From: Chlamydiota bacterium | GTDB taxonomy: Bacteria; Auribacterota; JACPWU01 | DNA: 27,389 bases | Reading direction: 5' to 3' | Assembly (NCBI GenBank): GCA_016196885.1 | Contig: JACPWU010000013.1 | Location: 1-27,389 of the forward strand | In this document: positions 1,748 through 21,621 of the stretch, in pieces | How the letters are laid out: each line of letters opens with the position of its first letter | How positions within the stretch are numbered: position 1 is the first letter of the stretch | Notes under the pieces: model-generated | The model's database searches: none | What the model was told of the DNA's origin: nothing | The model's input: the letters and a program-made list of their open reading frames with translations, nothing else | Made by a program: the position numbers and the translations under genes

Positions 1748-1805
1748 GAGTGCTTAAGTGCTTAAGTTGGTGAGTGCTTTAAGCACTCAAGCACTTAAAG
1801 CACTT
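1748..1805. repeat. Array of an approximately 8-nt unit: three direct AGTGCTT(A/T) copies, then three inverted AAGCACT(C/T) copies, centred on the perfect hairpin GAGTGCTT-T-AAGCACTC
   Basis: GAGTGCTTAAGTGCTTAAGTTGGTGAGTGCTTTAAGCACTCAAGCACTTAAAGCACTT, read directly. It can fold into a long, slip-capable stem-loop. Confidence 0.85.
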
Positions 1806-1855
1806 AAAAAAAACCGTGCAGGAAATAGTGAGAAAAAATAACTATCTCCTGCACG
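1806..1855 (-). terminator. Rho-independent terminator of the lipoprotein gene
   Basis: CGTGCAGGAAATAGT (1815-1829) pairs with ACTATCTCCTGCACG (1841-1855): 15 bp, one mismatch, 11-nt loop. On the minus strand it is followed by T8 (1806-1813). It begins 14 nt after the stop at 1869. Confidence 0.8.
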
Positions 1856-2313: not shown

Positions 2314-4503
2314 TTACCGAGATGTTACAGAGAATTCAATGGAGGCTTCGAAAGGAATTTGAGGAGATAATAAGGTTTTCCAAAGTAAAAGAATGCAAGA
2401 GCCTTGATAAGTTCTTTCAAAACCGCTTTCCGACTGAGAGATGGTTTCCAGAGGGAAATACCAAACGGTTGTGGGTGGAGAAGATGAGATTTGGATTGTG
2501 AAATGGTCTTCATCGTTCACCATTTCGACCCTTTCACAAGTGGCCATTTCTCCTTTGGCTCCCAGTAAGACATGAGGTTTTTGGGAATTGAAACGATAGT
2601 AGCGTTTCGCATCATTTCCGCAAAGAAGCGTGAGATTGAGTTCTGTCCCGAACCAGATTTCAGCCGTTTGGTTTTCTGAAGATGTAACACGATAATGGAT
2701 TTGAAAAGAGTCATGGGATTTTGAATCATGGCTGAAGGTTTTTCGAATGGTTAAAGGATGGGGAGGAAATCCTTCTCGAAAAAGATGTCCTTCCCTTTTT
2801 AGGGCGATAGAGACCTGATTTTCCCTTTTTTCGATTTTCTCCGTCGTATAGGGTTGGTTGACGAAATCGCCTTCCTCTCGGAAGCGGCACTCATAAAATT
2901 GTTGAAGTGTGGTTGCAGGATGAATCAAGTGATCTAAAAATGAGAAGCGGGTGTACCAATCATAGAATAAAAATTGCTCCAGACCCTCCTCCTTGACTGT
3001 GCTGATGTCATGAATGGATTTGGGTTGGCCACCCCCCGTCTGTTGTTTTTCTTTTTCAGCATGGGCGATTTTCTCGTGATAGCTTTCTTCTCGACGGGTC
3101 AAGACATTGGTAAGATTGAAATGTTTGGGCCGATAATCGAGCTCACAAACAGAGCCCCCCTCATGGGGCTGCAAATAGAGGTTAAAGTTTTTTGTAGATA
3201 AAAGGATTTCATCTTTTCCATCGCAATTGTAATCTAGGTTCTCAAGATGAAGCCTTCCTTTGTGAGTTTTTAGCGCGATGTCTTCTGCCTTGATGAGATG
3301 GGTGTAATTGGCATGGCGTAGATAATTTAAATAAAGCCCTCCAAAAAGCCCATGCCAATAAGGGCAATTACACTCCCCCTTCCAAAGTTCTTTCTGAGCT
3401 TTCTCCTTTTCTTTTGCATCGTGAATTTTGGAAACCATACGGCTTACATGCGTCATCTTCTTATGCATGAGGTTGCTTTCAGGGTATTTGGAAAAAAAGT
3501 TTCTCCAGAATCCCCCGCGTAAAAAAGGTCTCAGGGCTTCATACCTCCCGGAGTTCTTGAGATCCTGAAGGGTCCCTTCATAAAGCTTTTGAGCTTTTGT
3601 GGGAAGCGACCATTCCATCATTTCTTCATAAGAGGCATTGGGAAGATAGGTTCTCCCCATAGGAGGATGGGTTTCGAGATATTCAGAAAAGGGGGTCATT
3701 TTAATCCAGTGGGCATTTTCTTCGAGGAGGTTGAAGAGACGATCTAAATATTTTTCCTCAAAAACCCATTTGTAAGTTCCTGGCCAAAGACCTAATTTTT
3801 CTCCGTCATCTCCTAAGGTGATCCCCCGATCTCCCAAATGACTGGAGACACTTGCCAGGAACTCAATTGTTTTTTCAGGCGTGTTGAAAGGGATCAAGTA
3901 GCGTAATCCTTTATGAATTGGGAAAACAGATAAGGTTTTTCCTTTGTCTTCTGTGACATAGTGACCGAACATGTCTTTTTCTTGAAGGCCCGCATAATAA
4001 AAATGGGTGTCGTCAAGGAGTGTATATTCAATCCCGCTCTGATGGATGATGGAGGCGAGCTGCGGTTCCCAGACCCGCTCCGCAAGCCACATGCCTTTGG
4101 GTTTTTTTCCAAATTTTTCAAAGAGGTATTGATTCATCATTTCAATCTGGCCAAGCGCGTCTTCTTCAGAAAGGGTTGAAATGAGGGGTTCATAAAAAGC
4201 CCCTCCCATGAGTTCGATTTGATTTCGGTCTGAGAGATTTTTCAATTTCTTAAGATAATCTGGCCTGTTCTCTTCCAGCCATTCCAGAAGAGAACCTGTG
4301 TGATGAAGGGTTAGGCGGATTTTTGGATGACGGCTCAGGGTATCCAGAAAAGGTTCGTAGCAATACTTAACAGCATCGTTAAAAACCCATTCAAAGTTTC
4401 CGACGGGCTGATGGTTGTGAATGGCAAAAAGAAAATGGATCGGGTTCACTTGATTCTCCAAGAATTTTAAATGCCCAATTTTAATTGGACATTCATTTGT
4501 CAT
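2314..4503 (-). CDS. Glycoside hydrolase family 57 protein, 4-alpha-glucanotransferase / alpha-amylase-like, 729 aa
   Basis: GH57 signature regions are present: HNHQPVGNF near the N-terminus, WLAERVWEP (nucleophile-Glu region) and GDDGEKLGLWPG (acid/base-Asp region). Confidence 0.85.
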   Translation of the reverse strand: MTNECPIKIGHLKFLENQVNPIHFLFAIHNHQPVGNFEWVFNDAVKYCYEPFLDTLSRHPKIRLTLHHTGSLLEWLEENRPDYLKKLKNLSDRNQIELMGGAFYEPLISTLSEEDALGQIEMMNQYLFEKFGKKPKGMWLAERVWEPQLASIIHQSGIEYTLLDDTHFYYAGLQEKDMFGHYVTEDKGKTLSVFPIHKGLRYLIPFNTPEKTIEFLASVSSHLGDRGITLGDDGEKLGLWPGTYKWVFEEKYLDRLFNLLEENAHWIKMTPFSEYLETHPPMGRTYLPNASYEEMMEWSLPTKAQKLYEGTLQDLKNSGRYEALRPFLRGGFWRNFFSKYPESNLMHKKMTHVSRMVSKIHDAKEKEKAQKELWKGECNCPYWHGLFGGLYLNYLRHANYTHLIKAEDIALKTHKGRLHLENLDYNCDGKDEILLSTKNFNLYLQPHEGGSVCELDYRPKHFNLTNVLTRREESYHEKIAHAEKEKQQTGGGQPKSIHDISTVKEEGLEQFLFYDWYTRFSFLDHLIHPATTLQQFYECRFREEGDFVNQPYTTEKIEKRENQVSIALKREGHLFREGFPPHPLTIRKTFSHDSKSHDSFQIHYRVTSSENQTAEIWFGTELNLTLLCGNDAKRYYRFNSQKPHVLLGAKGEMATCERVEMVNDEDHFTIQISSSPPTTVWYFPLETISQSESGFERTYQGSCILLLWKTLLSPQIPFEASIEFSVTSR

Positions 4504-4538
4504 TGGTGATTGGTGACTGGTAATGGGTTATTGTTTTT
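4504..4538. repeat. Degenerate tandem heptamers TGGTGAT-TGGTGAC-TGGTAAT-GGGTTAT-TGTTTTT filling the entire spacer between the two GH57 genes
   Basis: Read directly. The 7-nt phase continues into the first codons of the downstream gene (ATTCATT-TGTCATT). Confidence 0.6.
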
Positions 4539-6705: not shown

Positions 6706-7721
6706 ACTTCAGCCTCCTGTAAAAATTTCGAGGCTTCTTCAGGAATGGTGGGGTTGATGTAGAAGCCGCTTCCCCATTCAAAGCCGGCCACCTTCGTGAG
6801 ACGGGGCATGATTTCGACATGCCAATGATAATCTTGGTCAATGGTGGTCCAATATCCTCTCCTCTTCCATCGGATGGGGCCTGTGTGCAAAACGAAATTA
6901 TATTGAGGTTTGTTAAGGGCCTTCGCCAATTTTGCAAGGGTTACGCGCATGACATCTGAGAAACCTAGGATTTCATTGGAAGAGAGGGTGTGAAAATCCG
7001 GGTCGTGGCGTTTGGGAAGAACCATGATTTCAAAGGGAAATCGAGATGCAAACGGGCAAAAGGATAGAAAATGTTCATTTTCATAGACGGTTCTTAATTT
7101 TGCTCGTTGTTCTTCTACTAAAATGTCACAGAAAACGCATCGGTCCTTGTACTCAAAATATTGTTGAGCCCCCACCAGCTCTTCCTTCACCCGTTTAGGG
7201 GTGATAGGAGTGGCAATCAACTGAGAATGCGGATGGGTCAGCGAGGCCCCTGCCGAAGAACCTTCATTTTTAAAAATAAGAACATATTTCAAGCGAAGAT
7301 CATTTTCCAAATCTTTGATGCGGACCCGATAGGCCTCAAAAACTTTTGCAAGGCTTTCAATGGAATGCATCTCCATTTTCTGATCGTGGCGGGGAGTTTC
7401 GATAATCACTTCGTGGGCCCCAATTCCGTTCATGCGGTCATAGATTCCAACGCCCATTTTTTCCATCTCACCTTCAATCCGCAGGGCGGGAAATTTGTTG
7501 GGAACCACACGAACCTCCCAGCCGGAGGTGTTGGCATGCGTATGGGGATTTCGAATGGCAAAAATTTCGGAAGGGGTTTTCCCCTCGCTTCCCTCGCAGA
7601 AGGGACAACCTTCTTTTGAGAGATCATCCGCTTCCGTTCTAAAATCAGTGGGTCTTTTACCACGCTCGGTTGCAATGATCACCCACCGCCCCACAATTGG
7701 ATCTTTTCGGAGTTCTGGCAT
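6702..7721 (-). CDS. galT: Galactose-1-phosphate uridylyltransferase family protein (HIT superfamily; possibly an ADP-/UDP-glucose-hexose-1-phosphate nucleotidyltransferase or phosphorylase), 339 aa
   Basis: CPFCEGSEG zinc motif and the HPHSQL (His-Pro-His) active-site motif are present. I start at the ATG at 7721 (MPELRKDP), which is preceded by AAGGGTG, rather than at the GTG at 7730. Confidence 0.8.
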   Translation of the reverse strand: MPELRKDPIVGRWVIIATERGKRPTDFRTEADDLSKEGCPFCEGSEGKTPSEIFAIRNPHTHANTSGWEVRVVPNKFPALRIEGEMEKMGVGIYDRMNGIGAHEVIIETPRHDQKMEMHSIESLAKVFEAYRVRIKDLENDLRLKYVLIFKNEGSSAGASLTHPHSQLIATPITPKRVKEELVGAQQYFEYKDRCVFCDILVEEQRAKLRTVYENEHFLSFCPFASRFPFEIMVLPKRHDPDFHTLSSNEILGFSDVMRVTLAKLAKALNKPQYNFVLHTGPIRWKRRGYWTTIDQDYHWHVEIMPRLTKVAGFEWGSGFYINPTIPEEASKFLQEAEV

Positions 7722-7761: not shown

Positions 7762-9222
7762 TCATTTTTTTAAGGCCCTGTTGTAAACTTCTTCGTAACG
7801 CCTTGCGGATTTTTCCCATGACAAATCGTCTTTCATTCCATTTTTAATGATTTCTTTGAAGAGGCTGGAGTTCCGGTAAATCTCCAGAGCCTCTTTGGTT
7901 TTTGCGAGAAGGGCTTCAGCGGAGTAATCTTTGAATTTAAAGCCATTTCCCTGGAGTGTCTTAGGATCAAAATTTTCAATTGAATCGTCGAGTCCTCCCG
8001 TTGCTCTCACAATGGGTACGGTGCCATACTTAAGACTGTAGATTTGATTGAGACCGCAGGGCTCGAAGCGGGATGGCATCATAAGAAAATCACATCCGGC
8101 CTCAATTTTATGTGAGAGCGGGATGTCGAAATCCAGTTTCAAGCCTACCTGCTGGGGGTATTTTGCCTGAAGTTCTTGGAAGAATCTGTGATATTTTTCT
8201 TCTCCTCTTCCCAAGAGGATAAACCCTGCATTTTCGGCAAGGATGGGGGCGATCGCCTCGCTTAAAATGTCCAATCCCTTTTGGTCTGTCAGACGAGAAA
8301 TCATTCCGATCAAGGGACGTCCGGGATCGAGATTTAGTTTGAACTCCTGAATCAGATTTTTTTTGCACTCTATTTTACCCCGAAGATCGTTCACGGAATA
8401 CCGGTTTGAGATAAAGGTGTCTTTCAATGGGTTCCATTCTTCCTCATCTACCCCATTCATGATTCCGTAAAGGTCTTTGGATCTTTTCACGAGGACGCCT
8501 TCTAATCCACAGCCGTATTCAGGGGTCTGAATCTCAAGACTATATTTTTGGCTGACAGTGGTAAGGATGTCGGAATACACAAGCCCGCTCTTCAGCAAAT
8601 TCATCTTTCCGTAGAATTCGATCCCTTCCGGGGTGAACACCTCCCACGGTAAATTGGTCATGTGCATATCGTAATGCCAAAAGAGTCCTTGAAAGGCAAG
8701 ATTATGGATGGTAAAAACCGTGCGGGTTTTTGAAAAGAAGGGATTATTGATTTCAATATTTTTAAGCAAAGCGCTGACCAGTCCTGTTTGCCAATCGTGC
8801 AGATGCAAAATATCGGCTTTTAATTCTAATTCCTCGAGGGTCGAGAGAATGGCCTTTGAGAAAAAAATGAATCGTTCAGCGTTGTCTCTAAAGTCTCCCT
8901 GAGGGGTCTGATACAGATCGTCGCGATCGTAGTATTCGTCTTTAACAACAAAAAGAACCTCCAGATTTTCTGCAAGTTTCGTTGTCGCGATGTCTCCTTC
9001 GATCACCCGGTCTCCCAATTGCACAAAAACCTTTTTTGAGAATTTTTTAATGTCAAGATTTGCCTTTTTAGTTTGCCTGTAAAAAGGTGTGATGATTTTG
9101 ACATCATGTCCTACCCTAGCAAGGGCCTTAGGAAGAGCACTCAAGACATCTGCAAGCCCTCCTGTCTTTGAAAAGGGAGCTATCTCGCTTGAGGCAAAAA
9201 CAATCTTTAGTTTTTTAGCCAT
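7762..9222 (-). CDS. glgA: Glycogen/starch synthase (ADP-glucose type), 486 aa
   Basis: N-terminus KIVFASSEIAPFSKTGGLADV (KTGGL motif). I start at the ATG at 9222 (MAKKLK), preceded by AAAGGAGA. The longer track ORF (to 9315) reads through a repeat array. Confidence 0.9.
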   Translation of the reverse strand: MAKKLKIVFASSEIAPFSKTGGLADVLSALPKALARVGHDVKIITPFYRQTKKANLDIKKFSKKVFVQLGDRVIEGDIATTKLAENLEVLFVVKDEYYDRDDLYQTPQGDFRDNAERFIFFSKAILSTLEELELKADILHLHDWQTGLVSALLKNIEINNPFFSKTRTVFTIHNLAFQGLFWHYDMHMTNLPWEVFTPEGIEFYGKMNLLKSGLVYSDILTTVSQKYSLEIQTPEYGCGLEGVLVKRSKDLYGIMNGVDEEEWNPLKDTFISNRYSVNDLRGKIECKKNLIQEFKLNLDPGRPLIGMISRLTDQKGLDILSEAIAPILAENAGFILLGRGEEKYHRFFQELQAKYPQQVGLKLDFDIPLSHKIEAGCDFLMMPSRFEPCGLNQIYSLKYGTVPIVRATGGLDDSIENFDPKTLQGNGFKFKDYSAEALLAKTKEALEIYRNSSLFKEIIKNGMKDDLSWEKSARRYEEVYNRALKK

Positions 9223-9243
9223 GAATTCTCCTTTTAAAGCGGT

Positions 9244-9320
9244 ACATCGAACATCGTACCTCGCACTTCGAACATCGAACATCGTACTTCGAACGATGTA
9301 CGATGTCCGAAGCACGATGT
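9244..9320. repeat. Eleven tandem heptanucleotide units in the glgC-glgA spacer
   Basis: In a strict 7-nt register: ACATCGA ACATCGT ACCTCGC ACTTCGA ACATCGA ACATCGT ACTTCGA ACGATGT ACGATGT CCGAAGC ACGATGT. ACGATGT is the reverse complement of ACATCGT, so the array is direct plus inverted and can form hairpins. It contains C(UUCG)G-type loops on the mRNA strand. Confidence 0.9.
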
Positions 9321-9326
9321 ACTGTT

Positions 9327-10568
9327 TTATGACTCTTCCATCCGTTCAAATTTTGTCTTCTTAGGGACAATCACAATTCCTTTTTCAGTAACCACAAAAC
9401 GCTTTCGGTCTTTTTCTAAATCAAATCCTATCCTTGATTTTGGCGGAATGTCCACGTCCTTGTCAATGATAGTTCTTCGAACTTGGGCGTATCGGCCAAT
9501 GTTAACCCCGTCAAAGAGAATAGATTCTTCAACTGAAGAAAAACTGTTGATGCGAACCCCCGGAGATAAAACAGAGTGATCCACCTTTCCACCGCTCACG
9601 ATGCAGCCTTCTGTGATGAGGGAGTCGGTTGCATATCCTACCCGTTGTTCTTCGATATTTGCAAAGACAAATTTTGCCGGTGGTAAATGGGAAGAAACCG
9701 TTCTGATAGGCCACTGTTGATTGTACAGGTTGAGTTGGGGAGATACATTGACCAAATCCATGTTCGCCTCCCAATAGGCATCTAAGGTTCCGACGTCTCT
9801 CCAATAGCCTTTTTCCTTTTCTTCAATTCCCGGGACATTGTTAGATGAAAAATCATATGCAAAAACTTTTAATGATTTGAGTGCATCGGGGATCACATTT
9901 TTCCCAAAATCATGATCGCTTTCTTTTTTGGCATCTCTTTTAAGTGCTTGAATCAAGATGTCTCGATTAAAAATGTAATTCCCCATGGAGACAAGCGCAA
10001 AATCGGATCTGTCGGGCAGGGGCTTCGGAGATTTTGGTTTTTCTTGAAAACCAATCACACGCAGGCTTGAGTCAACCGCGATAACGCCAAAGTTAGAGGC
10101 TTCCGTCGTGGGATAAGGAACCGCTGCGATCGTAATATCCGCACCCTTTTCCAAATGCTGTTTTTCCATTTGCCGAACATCCATTTTATAAATGTGATCT
10201 CCGCCAAAAATGAAAACGAGGTCTGGATTTTCATCTTCGATGATGTTGATATTTTGATAAATTGCATCCGCCGTTCCCTTAAACCAAGTCTCCCCTGTTC
10301 TCATTTGCGCTGGAACGCAATCAATATAATGTCCCACGGTGGGAGAAAGATGCCAGCCTGTGGTGATGTGTTTATTCAAAGATTCAGACATGAATTGGGT
10401 TAAAATTTTAATGTTAAAATAACCAGAATTGACAAAGTTACTTAAGGCAAAGTCAATGATTCGGTAATGCCCTCCAAAAGGAACCGCCGGCTTTGCCCTG
10501 TCCCGGGTCAAGGGATAGAGCCTGCGTCCCTCACCCCCCGCTAAAATCATGACCAAGCTTTTATACAT
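9327..10568 (-). CDS. glgC: Glucose-1-phosphate adenylyltransferase, 413 aa
   Basis: ILAGGEGRRLYPLTRDRAKPAVPFGG N-terminal signature, plus a C-terminal left-handed beta-helix-like region. I chose the ATG at 10568 (MYKSLVMILAGG); the upstream part of the track ORF looks non-coding. Confidence 0.9.
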   Translation of the reverse strand: MYKSLVMILAGGEGRRLYPLTRDRAKPAVPFGGHYRIIDFALSNFVNSGYFNIKILTQFMSESLNKHITTGWHLSPTVGHYIDCVPAQMRTGETWFKGTADAIYQNINIIEDENPDLVFIFGGDHIYKMDVRQMEKQHLEKGADITIAAVPYPTTEASNFGVIAVDSSLRVIGFQEKPKSPKPLPDRSDFALVSMGNYIFNRDILIQALKRDAKKESDHDFGKNVIPDALKSLKVFAYDFSSNNVPGIEEKEKGYWRDVGTLDAYWEANMDLVNVSPQLNLYNQQWPIRTVSSHLPPAKFVFANIEEQRVGYATDSLITEGCIVSGGKVDHSVLSPGVRINSFSSVEESILFDGVNIGRYAQVRRTIIDKDVDIPPKSRIGFDLEKDRKRFVVTEKGIVIVPKKTKFERMEES

Positions 10569-10657
10569 TTGAAGAATCCTATAAGAAACCAACTCCCCCC
10601 AACCCCTCTTTCCCACGGGGACTATAACCTCTTGAAATAAGAGGGGAGTCGGAGGGG

Positions 10658-12067: not shown

Positions 12068-12152
12068 ACCCCCTCATTCTACTCTGAAATTCACAAATGT
12101 CAATATTTTGGAATTGGTTATAAAAAGTGTTCATGTTATTCTTAAAAACAGA

Positions 12153-14269: not shown

Positions 14270-14483
14270 AATGACAAATGACCAACATCAATTTCAATGA
14301 CCCTTTTGGGGGGTCATCGTGTGCGATGAAAGTTCTCCCAATCATGCTTTTTTTGTAGTCGCCCGATTCATCGGGCAGCCCCATAAATGGGGCGACTACA
14401 AATTAATCCTCAATTCTCCAATGATCCATTAGACATTCGTAATGGGTTATTCATTTAACATTGGAAATGAGTCATTTGTCATT
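14270..14483. repeat. 13-bp inverted repeats, AATGACAAATGAC (14270-14282) and GTCATTTGTCATT (14471-14483), bracketing the whole convergent rnr/PMM spacer
   Basis: Read directly. The left arm starts 5 nt after the rnr stop. The right arm abuts the PMM stop codon. Confidence 0.6.
14355..14399. repeat. REP/BIME-like doublet: two inverted GTAG-headed palindromic units
   Basis: GTAGTCGCCCGATTCATCGGGC (14355-14376) and, inverted, GCCCCATAAATGGGGCGACTAC (14378-14399). Each unit is a GTAGTC head plus a GC-rich hairpin. The same units recur at 21535-21621. Confidence 0.8.
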
Positions 14484-15814
14484 TATGAGTTTTGAATGAT
14501 GCTCAACAATTCTTCCGACTTTTCTTTAAGCATCTGAGGCGTTTTTGCCTCCACATTTAATCTTAAAAGAGGTTCTGTATTTGATTTTCGGAGATTGAAC
14601 CACCAGTCTTTGAATTCAATGGATAAACCATCCAGATAAAAAGTTTTTCCGTCCTGAAATTTTTTCTCAATGTGCTGAATAATTTGATCAGGATCTTTCA
14701 CTTTTGAGTTCAGCTCGCCTGTTGCGTGGTACCTTTTTAAGGGATGTATCAATTTTGAGAGTGGAACGCCCGCCTGAGAAAGCACATTCAACATCATCAC
14801 AAATGCAATCGCCGCGCTGTCACAAAAAGAATTATCCCTAAAGTAATAATGTCCTGAAAGCTCTCCTGCAAAAACACCATTCGCCTCTCTCAAGGCCTGC
14901 TTGATGAAGGCATGTCCCACCCGACACATTTGGGCCTTGCCGCCATTTTTCTCAACTTCTTCCCGAACCGTCCAGCTCGATCTCAGGTCATAAAGAATCG
15001 TCCCTCCTGGACGCTGGCGTAAAAATTCTTTCGCAATCAGGGTTGTAATAATATCCGCTGAGACAATTTGGCCTTCGTTATCCACAAACATCACACGATC
15101 CGCATCACCGTCAAAGGCTACTCCCAAATCCGCCTCATGCTCAATCACCGTCTTCATCAGGTCATGCATGTTATGCGACTCTAAAGGATTGGCGTCATGA
15201 TGAGGGAAAGTGCCGTCCAGTTCAAAATAAAGAGGGATCACTTCGCCGGGCAAAAACTCAAAAAGTTTTGGGGCAATCAGGCCACCCATGCCATTGCCCG
15301 CATCGATCACTATTTTGAACCTTTTAATTTTTTTAGAAAATTTTAGAACATGTTGAATGTAATCATCTAAAACATTTTTCGTTTCAATTTTTCCTTTTTT
15401 CCCTGTGTGCTTAGGGACATCAAAATTACGAACTTTATCTTCAATTTCGGCAATGCCGGTTTCATAGCTGATAGGGTAAGCACCCCGCTGACACATTTTA
15501 ACGCCGTTGTATTCTTTAGAATTGTGACTGGCCGTGACCATCACCCCGCCATCATAATCATAATGGGCTGTTGTGAAATTAATCATGGGTGTAGAAATGA
15601 GTCCGACGTCCACAATATTGAGTCCTCCATCGGTCAGACCTTCCGCCACTTGTTTAAAAAGAGAGGGCGAGGAAGTTCTCATGTCCCGCCCCACAGCGAC
15701 CGTTCCTTTTCCGATCACTTGCGAAATTGCATAGCCAATTTTATAGACAATCTCTTCGTTGATTTCTTGAGGGTAAATCCCCCGAATGTCGTAAGCCTTA
15801 AAAATGCCTGCCAT
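14483..15814 (-). CDS. Phosphomannomutase / phosphoglucomutase (alpha-D-phosphohexomutase family), 443 aa
   Basis: Phosphoserine loop TASHNSKEYNGVK, metal-binding loop FDGDADRVMF, and sugar-binding GELSGHYYF. AGGAGAG RBS. Confidence 0.85.
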   Translation of the reverse strand: MAGIFKAYDIRGIYPQEINEEIVYKIGYAISQVIGKGTVAVGRDMRTSSPSLFKQVAEGLTDGGLNIVDVGLISTPMINFTTAHYDYDGGVMVTASHNSKEYNGVKMCQRGAYPISYETGIAEIEDKVRNFDVPKHTGKKGKIETKNVLDDYIQHVLKFSKKIKRFKIVIDAGNGMGGLIAPKLFEFLPGEVIPLYFELDGTFPHHDANPLESHNMHDLMKTVIEHEADLGVAFDGDADRVMFVDNEGQIVSADIITTLIAKEFLRQRPGGTILYDLRSSWTVREEVEKNGGKAQMCRVGHAFIKQALREANGVFAGELSGHYYFRDNSFCDSAAIAFVMMLNVLSQAGVPLSKLIHPLKRYHATGELNSKVKDPDQIIQHIEKKFQDGKTFYLDGLSIEFKDWWFNLRKSNTEPLLRLNVEAKTPQMLKEKSEELLSIIQNS

Positions 15815-17330: not shown

Positions 17331-19004
<1,674 letters not shown>

Positions 19005-19019
19005 TTAGACCTCGAAGGG

Positions 19020-19053
19020 TCGTCCCGAGGAACGATCGCTACGCTCGGGATGA
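19020..19053 (-). other. Stem-loop in the unusually long (89-nt) groES-groEL spacer
   Basis: TCGTCCCGAG (19020-19029) pairs with CTCGGGATGA (19044-19053): 10 bp including one wobble. The loop contains the CGATCG palindrome. Flanking mini-hairpins are GACC..GGTC and ATGAC..GTCAT. Confidence 0.4.
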
Positions 19054-19066
19054 CATGAAACGAAGG

Positions 19067-19354
19067 TCATTTCACAACTGCTAAAACTTCTTCTTCTCGA
19101 AGAATTAAAAATTCATCGTCGCCGACCTTGACTTCTGTTCCAGAATATTTTCCGATGAGAACCTTGTCCCCTTCCTTCACTTGAAAGGGAATGGCTTTCC
19201 CTTCATCGGACACCTTGCCGTGCCCCAAAGCCACCACCTCAGCCTCCATTGGCTTTTCCTTGGCTGTATCTGGGATAATAATTCCACCCTTCTTGACTTC
19301 CTTCTCTTCAACCCTCCTGACGAGAATTCGATCTGCTAAAGGTTTGACCTTCAT
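19067..19354 (-). CDS. groES: Co-chaperonin GroES (Hsp10), 95 aa
   Basis: [19 protein letters not shown]...[23 protein letters not shown]. The gene starts 20 nt after the dnaK stop. Confidence 0.95.
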
Positions 19355-19374
19355 TGTTTAACTCCTTTCATTGA

Positions 19375-21303
19375 TTATTTTTTCTTTTTCTTATCATCCA
19401 CCACTTCGAAATCCGCATCAATGACATCTTCTTTTTTCTCATCCTTCTTCTCTTCGGCTTGAGAATTTTGCTCGTGAGGTTGTTGCTGGTCATGAGCGGA
19501 GGAAGATGCCTTTTGATACAAATCTGTGGAAATCTCCTGCCAAATTTTCATCAATTCATCGGTCTTTGATTCAAGCTCACCCTTTTCATCAGAGTTTAAG
19601 ATGTCCCTTAGGCTCTTAATCGCATTTTCAAGACGCTCTTTATGTGCATCTGAAATTTTATCCTTTTGTTCTTTGACGAATTTCTCACTTTGATAAATGG
19701 CATTGTCGGCCTTGTTTCTCGCTTCAATCACTTCCCTTTTCTTTTTATCTTCGCCAGAGAATTTCTCTGCATCCTTCACCATGTTCTTGATTTCATTCTC
19801 TGTCAAGCCGGAGTTAGCCTGAATGGTAATTTTTTGTTCCTTCCCTGTCCCCAAATCCTTGGCAGAGACATGAAGAATGCCGTTGGCATCCAGGTCAAAA
19901 GTGACTTCGATCTGAGGAACCCCTCTGGGAGCCGGCGGAACACCGACCAATTGAAATCGGCCGATGGTTTTATTGTCTCTGGCCATTTCACGCTCTCCTT
20001 GAAGCACGTGAATCTCTACACTGGTCTGGCCGTCGGCCGCCGTGCTAAAAATTTCACTTTTCTTCGTGGGGATGGTGGTATTGCGATCAATGAGTTTTGT
20101 CATGACGCCACCCAGTGTCTCAATTCCCAAGGAAAGCGGAGTCACGTCCAAAAGAAGAACATCCGTCACTTCGCCCTTCAGAACACCTGCCTGAATCGCG
20201 GCACCCACTGCTACCACTTCATCTGGATTCACGCCCTTATGGGGTTCTTTCCCAAAAAGCTCTTTCACAATTTCCTGAACTTTGGGCATGCGGGTTTGTC
20301 CGCCGACCAAAATGACCTCATTGATATCTGAGGGTGTCTGCTTCGCGTCTTTCAAGGCCTGCTTCACAGGAGCAATGGTTCTTTGAATGAGGTCATCTAC
20401 CAATTGCTCAAGCTTAGAGCGGCTTAATTTAACGCTCAGATGTTTAGGGCCCGAGGCATCGGCCGTGATAAAAGGTAGATTGATCTCGGATTCCTGAGCA
20501 CTTGAAAGCTCGCATTTCGCCTTCTCGGCTGCTTCTTTGAGTCGCTGCAAGGCCATCGGATCTTTTCTTAAATCAATGCCATTTTCTTTTTTAAATCCAT
20601 CGGCCAGCCAATCCATAATTTTCTGATCAAAGTCATCACCGCCCAAATGAGTATCTCCATTGGTGGATTTTACTTCAAAAACACCTTCACCAATTTCAAG
20701 AATGGAAATATCAAAGGTTCCGCCTCCCAAATCATACACGGCAATTTTCTCGTCCTTCTTTTTATCTAAGCCATAAGCCAAGGAGGCAGCCGTGGGTTCA
20801 TTGATGATGCGAAGTACTTCTAAACCTGCGATGCGTCCTGCATCCTTGGTTGCTTGGCGCTGGCTATGATTGAAGTATGCAGGAACAGTGATCACCGCTT
20901 GGGTGATTTTTTCTCCCAAATAGGCCTCTGCATCGGCTTTTAATTTCTGGAGAATCATAGAAGAAATTTCGGGCGGAGAATAAACCTTGTCCGTAATTTT
21001 GACATGGGCGTCGTTGTTGGTGGCACTCGCCACTTGATAGGGAACCAATTTGATTTCGTTTTGAACCTCGGAGAATTTTCTTCCCATGAAACGCTTGATG
21101 GAAAAAACGGTATTATTGGGATTTGTGACAGCTTGTCTTTTGGCTGTAAGTCCCACGAGGCGTTCTCCCCCTTTAGTGAAACCAACCACGGAAGGCGTTG
21201 TTCTCCCCCCTTCTGAATTTGGAATCACCACCGGCTCTCCACCCTCTAAGATGGCCACGCAAGAATTGGTTGTTCCAAGATCTATCCCAATAACTTTACC
21301 CAT
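19375..21303 (-). CDS. dnaK: Molecular chaperone DnaK (Hsp70), 642 aa
   Basis: [22 protein letters not shown], and an acidic/Lys-rich C-terminal tail. I start at the ATG at 21303. The track ORF begins at a TTG that lies inside the promoter motif. Confidence 0.95.
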
Positions 21304-21534: not shown

Positions 21535-21621
21535 GTAGCCGCCCGATTGATCGGGCAATCGTAGTCGCCCGATTCATCAGGCAAATCCATGCAAGGACGG
21601 CCCCATAAATGGGGCGACTAC
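21535..21621. repeat. REP/BIME-like cluster: two direct units plus one inverted GTAG-headed palindromic unit
   Basis: GTAGCCGCCCGATTGATCGGGC (21535-21556), GTAGTCGCCCGATTCATCAGGC (21561-21582), and inverted GCCCCATAAATGGGGCGACTAC (21600-21621). The last unit plus the flanking AAATT is identical to 14378-14404. Confidence 0.8.

Follow-up and report, generated by a model that had tools for sequence, protein, structure and literature searches.

A hairpin-forming, STRR-like heptanucleotide array in the glgC-glgA spacer of an Auribacterota-like bacterium

How did an array of heptanucleotide repeats come to lie between two genes of glycogen synthesis, and does it regulate them? The question is raised by the 27,389-bp contig JACPWU010000013.1 (called the window below, in its whole length), whose minus strand carries a co-directional cluster of the genes DUF8575, glgC, glgA, galT-like, GH57, GH57 (4-alpha-glucanotransferase type) and gly-zipper. 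The glgC gene for ADP-glucose pyrophosphorylase (9327..10568, minus strand, gene call of 413 amino acids; Pfam NTP_transferase at 1.1e-65, Hexapep_GlmU and LbH_GLGC, the GlgC beta-helix) ends with a TAA stop codon at 9329-9327, and its open reading frame (ORF) would also allow a longer version starting from a GTG at 10616. The glgA gene for glycogen synthase was called at 7762..9222 on the same strand (Pfam Glyco_transf_5 at 3.1e-82 and Glycos_transf_1), and the 104 nt between the two genes (9223..9326, minus strand) are almost filled by the heptamers. Because the evidence fits the kind of heptanucleotide long simple-sequence repeats (LSSRs), we read the array as a lineage-specific, hairpin-forming repeat resembling the STRRs (short tandemly repeated repetitive sequences) of cyanobacteria, and as one of many such arrays in a clade of two genomes. 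We think it probable, if far from certain, that it is a tolerated by-product forming a passive hairpin and not a dedicated regulator of glycogen metabolism.

The array and its predicted mRNA hairpin

The array occupies 9244-9320 of the plus strand (77 nt). An earlier reading made without database searches (the sequence-only reading below) had described eleven direct and inverted heptamers filling the spacer in a strict register, which agrees exactly with what we find. In plus-strand writing, there are seven direct units (9244..9292; ACATCGA ACATCGT ACCTCGC ACTTCGA ACATCGA ACATCGT ACTTCGA), which on the mRNA make up the 3' part of the array, and four inverted units (9293..9320; ACGATGT ACGATGT CCGAAGC ACGATGT), which are reverse complements of direct units. 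Tandem Repeats Finder reports period 7 at 9244-9294 (7.3 copies, score 60) and again at 9293-9322 (4.3 copies of the inverted unit ACGATGT), and describes the same array also with periods 14 and 21. Within the direct units, there is a higher-order direct duplication of 28 nt (9244-9266 versus 9272-9294, 91% identity), and a repeat search returned an inverted pair of 30 nt, 83% complementary. Shuffling the whole window 200 times with preserved dinucleotides gave period-7 scores of at most 40, compared with the 60 seen here, and a mean of 0.81 +/- 0.86 period-7 arrays, where the window itself contains four. The tandem array therefore exceeds chance length, as expected of a member of the LSSR class with units of 5-11 nt. 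With up to one mismatch allowed, ACATCGNACATCG occurs six times in the window (0.09 expected), always within the array, and the ACATCG unit is confined to this one locus of the 27 kb.

Because glgC and glgA are both encoded on the minus strand, their mRNA is the reverse complement of the strand that the sequence-only reading had written out; its letters stand, but they are not those of the transcript. In the sense direction, the spacer begins with AACAGU, continues with the blocks ACAUCGU GCUUCGG ACAUCGU ACAUCGU, UCGAAGU, ACGAUGU UCGAUGU UCGAAGU GCGAGGU and ACGAUGU UCGAUGU AC, and ends with CGCUUUAAAAGGAGAAUUC. In the main predicted hairpin (9261..9317, minus strand), arm 1 pairs with arm 2 through 17 bp, one 1-nt mismatch and 7 bp around a loop of 7 nt. 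The resulting near-continuous duplex of about 25 bp begins 9 nt past the glgC stop codon and is predicted to form upon transcription. Because the variant unit GCUUCGG of arm 1 faces UCGAAGU of arm 2, the unit variants are mirrored between the arms (ACTTCG opposite CGAAG on the DNA), and the sense strand accommodates both discrepancies as G-U pairs. ViennaRNA gave a minimum free energy (MFE) of -47.4 kcal/mol for 9215-9335 (z -5.48; none of 200 shuffles was as stable) and of -42.9 kcal/mol for the spacer by itself. The stable fold expected by the sequence-only reading is borne out by these values, while its several alternative long stem-loops hold only weakly. A third arm (GGUACGAUGUUCGAUGUACC; 9241..9260, minus strand) duplicates the first two units of arm 2 and forms a small 6-bp hairpin in the MFE structure. 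A switch in which it pairs with arm 1 was rejected, since this fold reaches -23 kcal/mol at best and is 20 kcal/mol weaker than the fold of the spacer.

The Shine-Dalgarno (SD) sequence of glgA, AAGGAG (9228..9233, minus strand), lies 5 nt before the ATG and outside the hairpin; on the mRNA, the array ends about 10 nt upstream of it. The mean unpaired probability is 0.65 for the SD sequence, 0.64 for the AUG and 0.22 for the array. We rejected a translational attenuator that sequesters the SD sequence, which had been among the functions proposed, because the ribosome-binding site is mostly unpaired. A Rho-independent terminator was likewise dismissed, in line with the sequence-only reading: the stem lacks a U-tract, the sequence after the hairpin being GGUACGAUG... 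and that after the array CCGCUUUAAAAGG, no U-tract is present in the spacer, and no terminator-like site was found in 8900-9700. The whole-window scan was of no diagnostic value, since it returned fewer terminator-like sites than the shuffles. A promoter scan found no promoter-like site in the spacer, and no sigma-54 promoter (GG-N10-GC) was seen there on by-eye inspection of the sense strand. Rfam gave nothing at gathering thresholds across the whole window; a match of Drosophila rox1 to the hairpin (30.8 versus 58 bits) was discarded as a sub-threshold chance match. Phase-variable contingency DNA, another of the functions suggested before, was also rejected because the units are imperfect and the array is flanked by the stop codon of glgC and the SD sequence of glgA, outside any reading frame or promoter spacing. 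With imperfect units of which at most two identical ones are adjacent, the array is not actively slippage-prone now.

The array also bears on the annotation of glgA. Homologues named glycogen synthase GlgA begin at the same M-x-K-K-L-K-I, and together with the SD sequence they place the true start at the ATG of 9222-9220. A mechanical ORF list (7762-9315, minus strand) instead starts the gene at a GTG at 9315, adding 31 codons read through the heptamers. The array is therefore an annotation trap that allows a false N-terminal extension of glgA.

Related operons and repeats elsewhere

We took relatives of GlgA from representative genomes and, by protein search, from assemblies. The window GlgA was found only on this contig and in one duplicate record, and the next relative is 75% identical. 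The gene order DUF8575-glgC-glgA-galT-GH57 is kept in loci L018/L019, L020, L021 and L142, while L002 and L003 have at least the glgC-glgA junction in common with the window. The gap between glgC and glgA amounts to 5 nt in L002, 9 nt in L003, 13 nt in L020 and 12 nt in L142; in L021, the genes overlap (ATGA) according to the gene call or are separated by 8 nt according to tblastn. In L143, glgA follows an upstream gene fragment after 27 nt, and in L018 the gap is 137 nt. None of the short-spacer loci (L002, L003, L020, L021 and L142) contains a period-7 array, so that five of the six closest orthologous operons are without the element, and the sixth, L018, has an array of unrelated sequence. 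The ancestral junction was almost certainly short, as judged from these gene orders, because the gaps of the relatives measure about 0-13 nt and the long spacer is present only in the two-genome clade. This distribution speaks against the dedicated element setting the GlgC:GlgA ratio that the sequence-only reading had considered, and to judge from the five operons lacking a counterpart, the array is not a conserved glg regulator.

Locus L018 is contig JACOUC010000017.1 of assembly GCA_016178055.1, and its sequence is identical to that of L019, a Logan assembly of SRR12113417. A neighbour-joining tree of GlgC and GlgA joins the window and L018 as sisters in 198 of 200 bootstraps. The nearest named relatives of the host are Candidatus Auribacterota and Candidatus Theseobacter, and the sister metagenome-assembled genome (MAG) bears the NCBI label 'Chlamydiae bacterium'. 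The assumption that the host is not a cyanobacterium was therefore correct; a window protein has, in its translation, the sequence features of a putative sigma-54 (NtrC-type) activator. The L018 spacer is made up of heptamers of the unrelated unit AGTTYAA / TTRAACT in three arms, of which the second and third are inverted and the second is followed by ATTTTTTT. It is one of two paralogous composite elements of about 140 nt, situated in the glgC-glgA spacer (L018 9857-9985) and in the GH57-GH57 spacer (14682-14819), each with an AGTTYAA arm 1, an inverted arm 2 plus T-run and an inverted arm 3. Their alignment is colinear and extends to the T-run and to the termini ACAGTT...AACTGTCTT. In layout they resemble a terminator/anti-terminator pair, and the MFE structure joins arm 1 to arm 3. 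The window array has only AACAGT at the 5' edge and CTTTA at the 3' edge in common with these elements; on comparison of the two spacers, their content is fully turned over between the sister genomes.

Arrays of this period are frequent in both genomes. We computed intergenic coverage from the gene calls delivered with the loci, the window figure referring to its gene-called part. Period-7 arrays make up 30% of the intergenic bases of the L018 contig, where they touch 8 of the 13 spacers longer than 30 nt, and 9% of those in the window, where all of them lie within spacers; in L020, the value is 0%. For the L018 contig, 16 period-7 rows were counted, while shuffles gave 0.61 +/- 0.77. The intergenic preference and the presence of several arrays per genome, seen in the window and in the sister contig, are again as in the LSSR class. 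The analogy to STRRs drawn in the sequence-only reading is thus apt, since period-7 arrays are enriched in the spacers of the window and especially of the sister contig. Because of this enrichment and the length variation of the orthologous spacers (about 0 to 137 nt), the array is not the one-off accident that the same reading had kept as its alternative. Taken together, the earlier interpretation appears partly supported: the STRR analogy and the exclusion of a terminator hold, whereas its specific functional proposals are disfavoured or at most tentative.

Each array of the window has its own unit. A second period-7 array of the ATTGGTG type (4502..4533, 4.6 copies, direct only) lies in the GH57-GH57 spacer and forms no hairpin (-2.5 kcal/mol, z -0.8); its unit is loosely similar to that of cyanobacterial STRR2 (TTGGTCA). 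Another array, with direct and inverted units of 8-9 nt (1749..1808; in minus-strand writing AAGTGCTT three times, then AAGCACTT three times), folds with -28.5 kcal/mol (z -5.46) and comes immediately after the terminator behind the gly-zipper gene, a hairpin at about 1806-1855 with a run of eight T following it. Its units resemble half-sites of the CIRCE operator of HrcA (controlling inverted repeat of chaperone expression), yet this assignment was rejected, as the window contains no CIRCE match with up to three mismatches. In the L018 contig, further period-7 arrays with other units fill most of the spacers (908-996, 1480-1634, 2073-2130, 7160-7240 and 17584-17605). Those at 1480-1634 and 7160-7240 have about 50 nt (...ATCAAAATGACAATGTAAAAYTTAAAATG...) in common and represent a second two-copy family, one copy of which overlaps a gene end and the start of the next gene.

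The window contains a separate family of G+C-rich palindromes similar to repetitive extragenic palindromic (REP) sequences, with the core GTAGTCGCCC at 14355-14399 and 21535-21621 (five cores versus 0.43 expected). One unit lies between the convergent genes for RNase R and phosphoglucomutase, and a cluster, which Tandem Repeats Finder describes as 1.9 copies of 26 nt at 21535-21584, lies upstream of dnaK; the family is absent from the sister contig L018. That contig codes for a Y1_Tnp protein of 331 amino acids (18835-19830, minus strand) with a DnaA-C-like tail and a sub-threshold match to REP-associated tyrosine transposases (RAYTs; 53.9 versus 80 bits). Its gene follows the gly-zipper gene as an insertion, at the place taken in the window by the 8-mer hairpin array. 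No heptamer arrays were found at its flanks, and no RAYT was found in the window.

Hairpin arrays also occur at glycogen loci of Omnitrophota. In L012, the spacer between glgC and a galT-like gene (2796-2896) contains CGGTTCT seven times, followed by an inverted array of the ACCGAAC type (-57 kcal/mol). In L007, the spacer between gap (GAPDH) and glgA (3838-3998) contains 6.5 copies of the 10-mer AGGTTGTCTG and then six copies of its inverse (-87 kcal/mol, z -11). Plain heptamer arrays were seen in L008 (GAAACCC, 4.7 copies), L013 and L014. A metagenome scan with ACATCGNACATCGNACNTCGNAC, which comprises three ACATCG-type units, returned at least 120 contigs with heptamer arrays of this type. 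Among the matches listed, none was a close relative, the proteins of the window reaching at most 50% identity in tblastn searches, and G+C contents ranged from 34 to 72%. The same matches contained 253 period-7 arrays with 104 distinct units, period 7 being by far the commonest, and about 9% of their ACATCG arrays had an inverted partner nearby. We also observed a recurrent context of an AACATCG/AACGTCG array, ...TTTTGAAAGATGAACGTCGAACATCGAACATCGAAC..TCGAATGAAAA..., with similar flanks in the unrelated contigs L046, L053, L055, L113 and L134; it could represent a conserved leader, a small ORF or an RNA.

Outside the repeats, the top-scoring sigma-70-like match among the first 20 kb of the window (TTGACA-16-TAGAAT, 11 of 12 positions; 12076-12103, minus strand) lies just upstream of the DUF8575 gene and is by its sequence a plausible promoter of the glycogen operon headed by this gene. 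Between groEL and the phosphoglucomutase gene, this small-genome candidate-phylum MAG has a gene for a cytochrome P450 (15903-17234, minus strand; assigned to Pfam p450 by the gene call).

Probable origin, possible effects and rival explanations

The array probably arose by replication slippage of 7-nt units, including the 28-nt higher-order duplication, and by an inverted duplication or template switch that would have created the complementary arm with its mirrored unit variants. It would have expanded within a formerly very short glgC-glgA junction, as part of a genome-wide habit of the two-genome clade by which heptamer arrays of many different units appear to fill gene spacers. The duplex of about 25 bp just past the glgC stop codon may uncouple the translation of glgA from that of glgC, while glgA would retain its exposed AAGGAG. 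Stable stem-loops impede 3' exonucleases, as in REP elements, or attract RNase III, as in its substrates. In the same way, the hairpin would probably act passively, by blocking 3'-to-5' exonucleases and/or by offering RNase III-type enzymes a place to cut, like REP elements and the intercistronic stem-loops of other operons. Most likely, the array is a by-product that is tolerated, and any effect on expression would be modest at most.

Several points weigh against this picture. No strain-level variants in unit number turned up in the collections searched, so that an origin by slippage or template switch rests on the anatomy of the array, and its longest run of identical adjacent units, namely two, argues against active slippage now. 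The two-copy families of L018 keep their non-repeat parts, which indicates copy-and-paste spread and not purely local slippage. The spacer fold has six G-U pairs in the sense but two in the antisense strand, making the sense strand 5.9 kcal/mol more stable; this excess, together with the presence of hairpin arrays in the same spacer of both sisters, could reflect selection on RNA structure. Finally, the proposed barrier or processing effect of the hairpin is purely inferred.

If structure had been selected, the hairpin would be an RNA element maintained because RNase III cuts it or exonucleases stop at it, which would set the ratio of glgC to glgA transcripts or proteins. Its position would suit this role, since a strong predicted hairpin stands exactly between stop codon and SD sequence and leaves the latter free, and so would the complementary arm variants and the sense-strand G-U excess. 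In the sister genome, moreover, this spacer is again occupied by a hairpin array although its sequence has turned over completely, and the cip-cel operon (PMC4423207) and the hupS-hupL STRR (PMC2670836) provide precedents. Yet five related operons manage with near-zero spacers and without the element, and most long spacers of the sister contig are filled with arrays whatever the function of the genes, so that occupation of the same spacer in both sisters is expected by chance. A consistent sense-strand selection, finally, was not borne out by the eight hairpin arrays compared, because the direction varies between them: two favour the sense strand (the window by the value given above, L007 by 17.4 kcal/mol) and six the antisense strand (L012 by 5.9, the other five by 1.0-3.2 kcal/mol). 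With five operons lacking the element, sister spacers filled regardless of the flanking genes and no consistent advantage of the sense strand, a dedicated regulator is disfavoured, and we consider a selected RNA element rather unlikely. Transcriptional termination or attenuation, translational attenuation and a phase-variable contingency tract fare worse, and their combined probability appears very slight. A strong hairpin inside an operon invites such proposals, tandem repeats can slip, and the sister elements, with a T-run after arm 2 and then a third arm, have an attenuator-like layout. The window array itself, however, lacks a U-tract, the canonical hairpin with eight T being located elsewhere (1806-1855); SD sequence and AUG are largely unpaired, the alternative fold is far weaker, and the imperfect units lie outside any coding frame or promoter spacing. 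It is also very unlikely, though perhaps a shade less so, that the array binds a protein, perhaps of the cold-shock/OB-fold type, that reads RNA or single-stranded DNA in units of 7 nt, as part of a lineage-wide post-transcriptional layer. The strict 7-nt periodicity despite varying sequence would fit such a protein; for TAACTGA repeats, binding of CspB with one protein per heptamer has been published as a speculation (PMC4679880), and a binding partner has been proposed for Nostoc heptamer repeats affecting recF and recO expression (bioRxiv 10.1101/2022.06.06.494920). A sequence-specific reader is argued against by units that differ completely between spacers and genomes; in addition, the units here are mostly in duplex, and no candidate protein could be linked to them.

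The conserved non-repeat parts mentioned above are among the arguments for a mobile dispersed hairpin element of the REP type, of the REPIN type (REP doublets forming hairpins) or similar to miniature inverted-repeat transposable elements (MITEs), with heptamers as arms and possibly moved by a Y1/RAYT protein. The glgC-glgA and GH57-GH57 elements of L018 are colinear including the T-run and the termini AAGACAGT...ACTGTCTT, the pair at 1480-1634 and 7160-7240 has its own common stretch, the window array shows the matching edges AACAGT and ...CTTTA, and the L018 Y1_Tnp protein is weakly similar to RAYTs. On the other hand, the ACATCG unit is present at one locus in 27 kb and different spacers carry different units, no clean target-site duplication was found, the RAYT-like match stays below its cut-off with no heptamer arrays at the flanks of the gene, and the separate GTAGTCGCCC family of the window would be a better RAYT substrate. 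Nor did we find the many near-identical dispersed palindromes expected of REPs or REPINs, the array being single-locus in the 27 kb tested. We therefore regard a mobile element as unlikely. A broader variant of the idea, to which we likewise give little probability, holds that the heptamer hairpins of the Auribacterota-like clade, with the 7- and 10-mer analogues of Omnitrophota, are a distinct class of self-propagating intergenic elements. Their arms would evolve fast while their termini stay conserved, as AAGACAGT...ACTGTCTT in the genome of the sister and as AACAGT...CTTTA in the window, and they would spread into operon spacers and so place a hairpin between cistrons that had been translationally coupled. 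If so, they would form a lineage-wide layer of operon remodelling instead of inert slippage products, and some copies, those with arm 1, arm 2 plus T-run and arm 3, might be conditional terminators. An assembly artefact of a palindromic low-complexity region, finally, has a practically negligible probability. The contig stems from a short-read MAG, and mis-joins can create palindromes; but the flanking sequence follows the conserved glgC-glgA gene order, the whole array (77-81 nt) is shorter than a typical read, and the sister element is identical in L018, an NCBI MAG contig, and in the Logan assembly L019 (SRR12113417), two records that may share reads.

Relation to known heptamer repeats

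The reading as a lineage-specific, STRR-like repeat places the array in a known kind. In two papers (PMC4679880 and PMC4692102, citing Mrazek et al. 2007), heptanucleotides are described as the most abundant class of long simple-sequence repeats in many bacteria, intergenic in location and proposed to arise by polymerase slippage. In filamentous cyanobacteria, a heptamer hairpin of the STRR type lies between hupS and hupL; its function is unknown, and a role in transcript stability or translational coupling has been suggested (PMC2670836). Like these STRRs of heterocystous cyanobacteria, the array consists of tandem 7-nt units, is intergenic and intercistronic, can form a hairpin inside an operon and is one of several per genome (PMC2670836). 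It differs in its host, an Auribacterota-like MAG related to the Planctomycetes-Verrucomicrobia-Chlamydiae (PVC) group and not a heterocystous cyanobacterium, and in its unit, ACATCGW instead of STRR1-3. While STRRs comprise few unit families genome-wide, each array has its own unit in the 27 kb of the window, and the sister contig has two two-copy families. The unit sequences of STRR1-3 were reportedly given by Mazel and co-workers in 1990.

The repeats of Xanthomonas and Nostoc (GGGAATC / GGGGAYT) are similar in that they have period 7, the dominant period among long simple-sequence repeats, and are intergenic, some lying within operons (pecE-pecF) and some forming inverted stem-loop pairs (PMC4692102, PMC4679880). 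In Xanthomonas, heptamer arrays include some inverted pairs and vary strongly in length and sequence at one intergenic site between related genomes (PMC4692102), and in Nostoc the output of a recO reporter was altered upon deletion of the heptamer repeat (bioRxiv 10.1101/2022.06.06.494920). Unlike those G-rich repeats of other taxa, for which G-quadruplexes have been proposed, the array described here has no G-runs and is predicted to form an ordinary duplex. The position of intergenic heptamers just upstream of starts is shared with the TAACTGA repeats, which are known from marine Beggiatoaceae, from cyanobacteria and from Bacteroidetes and were suggested to act in translation; those repeats, however, have one conserved unit, are nearly always direct (one inverted in 170 sets) and end 1 nt before the start codon (PMC4679880), whereas we find many units, direct and inverted arrangement, and an array end about 20 nt before the ATG.

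Stem-loops in operons offer another comparison. In Clostridium cellulolyticum, stem-loops between the cistrons determine the transcript ratios of the cip-cel operon (PMC4423207), an example of RNA being selectively processed and stabilized (SRPS), and stable stem-loops after the upstream cistron are likewise known as REPs and bacterial interspersed mosaic elements (BIMEs) from malE-malF of E. coli. The window has this arrangement, with a stem-loop predicted to be stable at the 3' end of the upstream cistron and genes that are co-directional, tightly spaced and of conserved synteny. Intercistronic REPs were reportedly studied by Newbury and co-workers in 1987. The expected effect of REP and SRPS structures is a shielding of the upstream mRNA from 3' exonucleases and a differential expression of the cistrons (PMC4423207 for SRPS). 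Unlike REPs, which are palindromes of 20-40 nt linked to RAYTs and present in hundreds of near-identical copies, the stem is built from tandem heptamers and single-copy in the window, and its processing is a prediction. Our literature search found nothing specific on heptamer or tandem repeats in Omnitrophota or Auribacterota, and to our knowledge and in the literature searched, the STRR-like kind is known but had not been described in these phyla.

The broader pattern appears to be of most value, namely that heptamer hairpins make up a large share of the spacer DNA in this clade and have analogues in Omnitrophota. It would extend the STRR-type phenomenon, mainly known from cyanobacteria, Xanthomonas and Beggiatoaceae, to an uncultured, PVC-related, Auribacterota-like clade and to Omnitrophota, and heptamer-filled spacers should not be read there as conserved regulators of the genes that flank them. 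Within one conserved operon, the related genomes offer a natural comparison of a near-zero junction, a 104-nt spacer with an ACATCG hairpin and a 137-nt spacer with a three-arm AGTTYAA element, which would be suited to asking whether heptamer hairpins alter mRNA processing, stability and cistron ratios.

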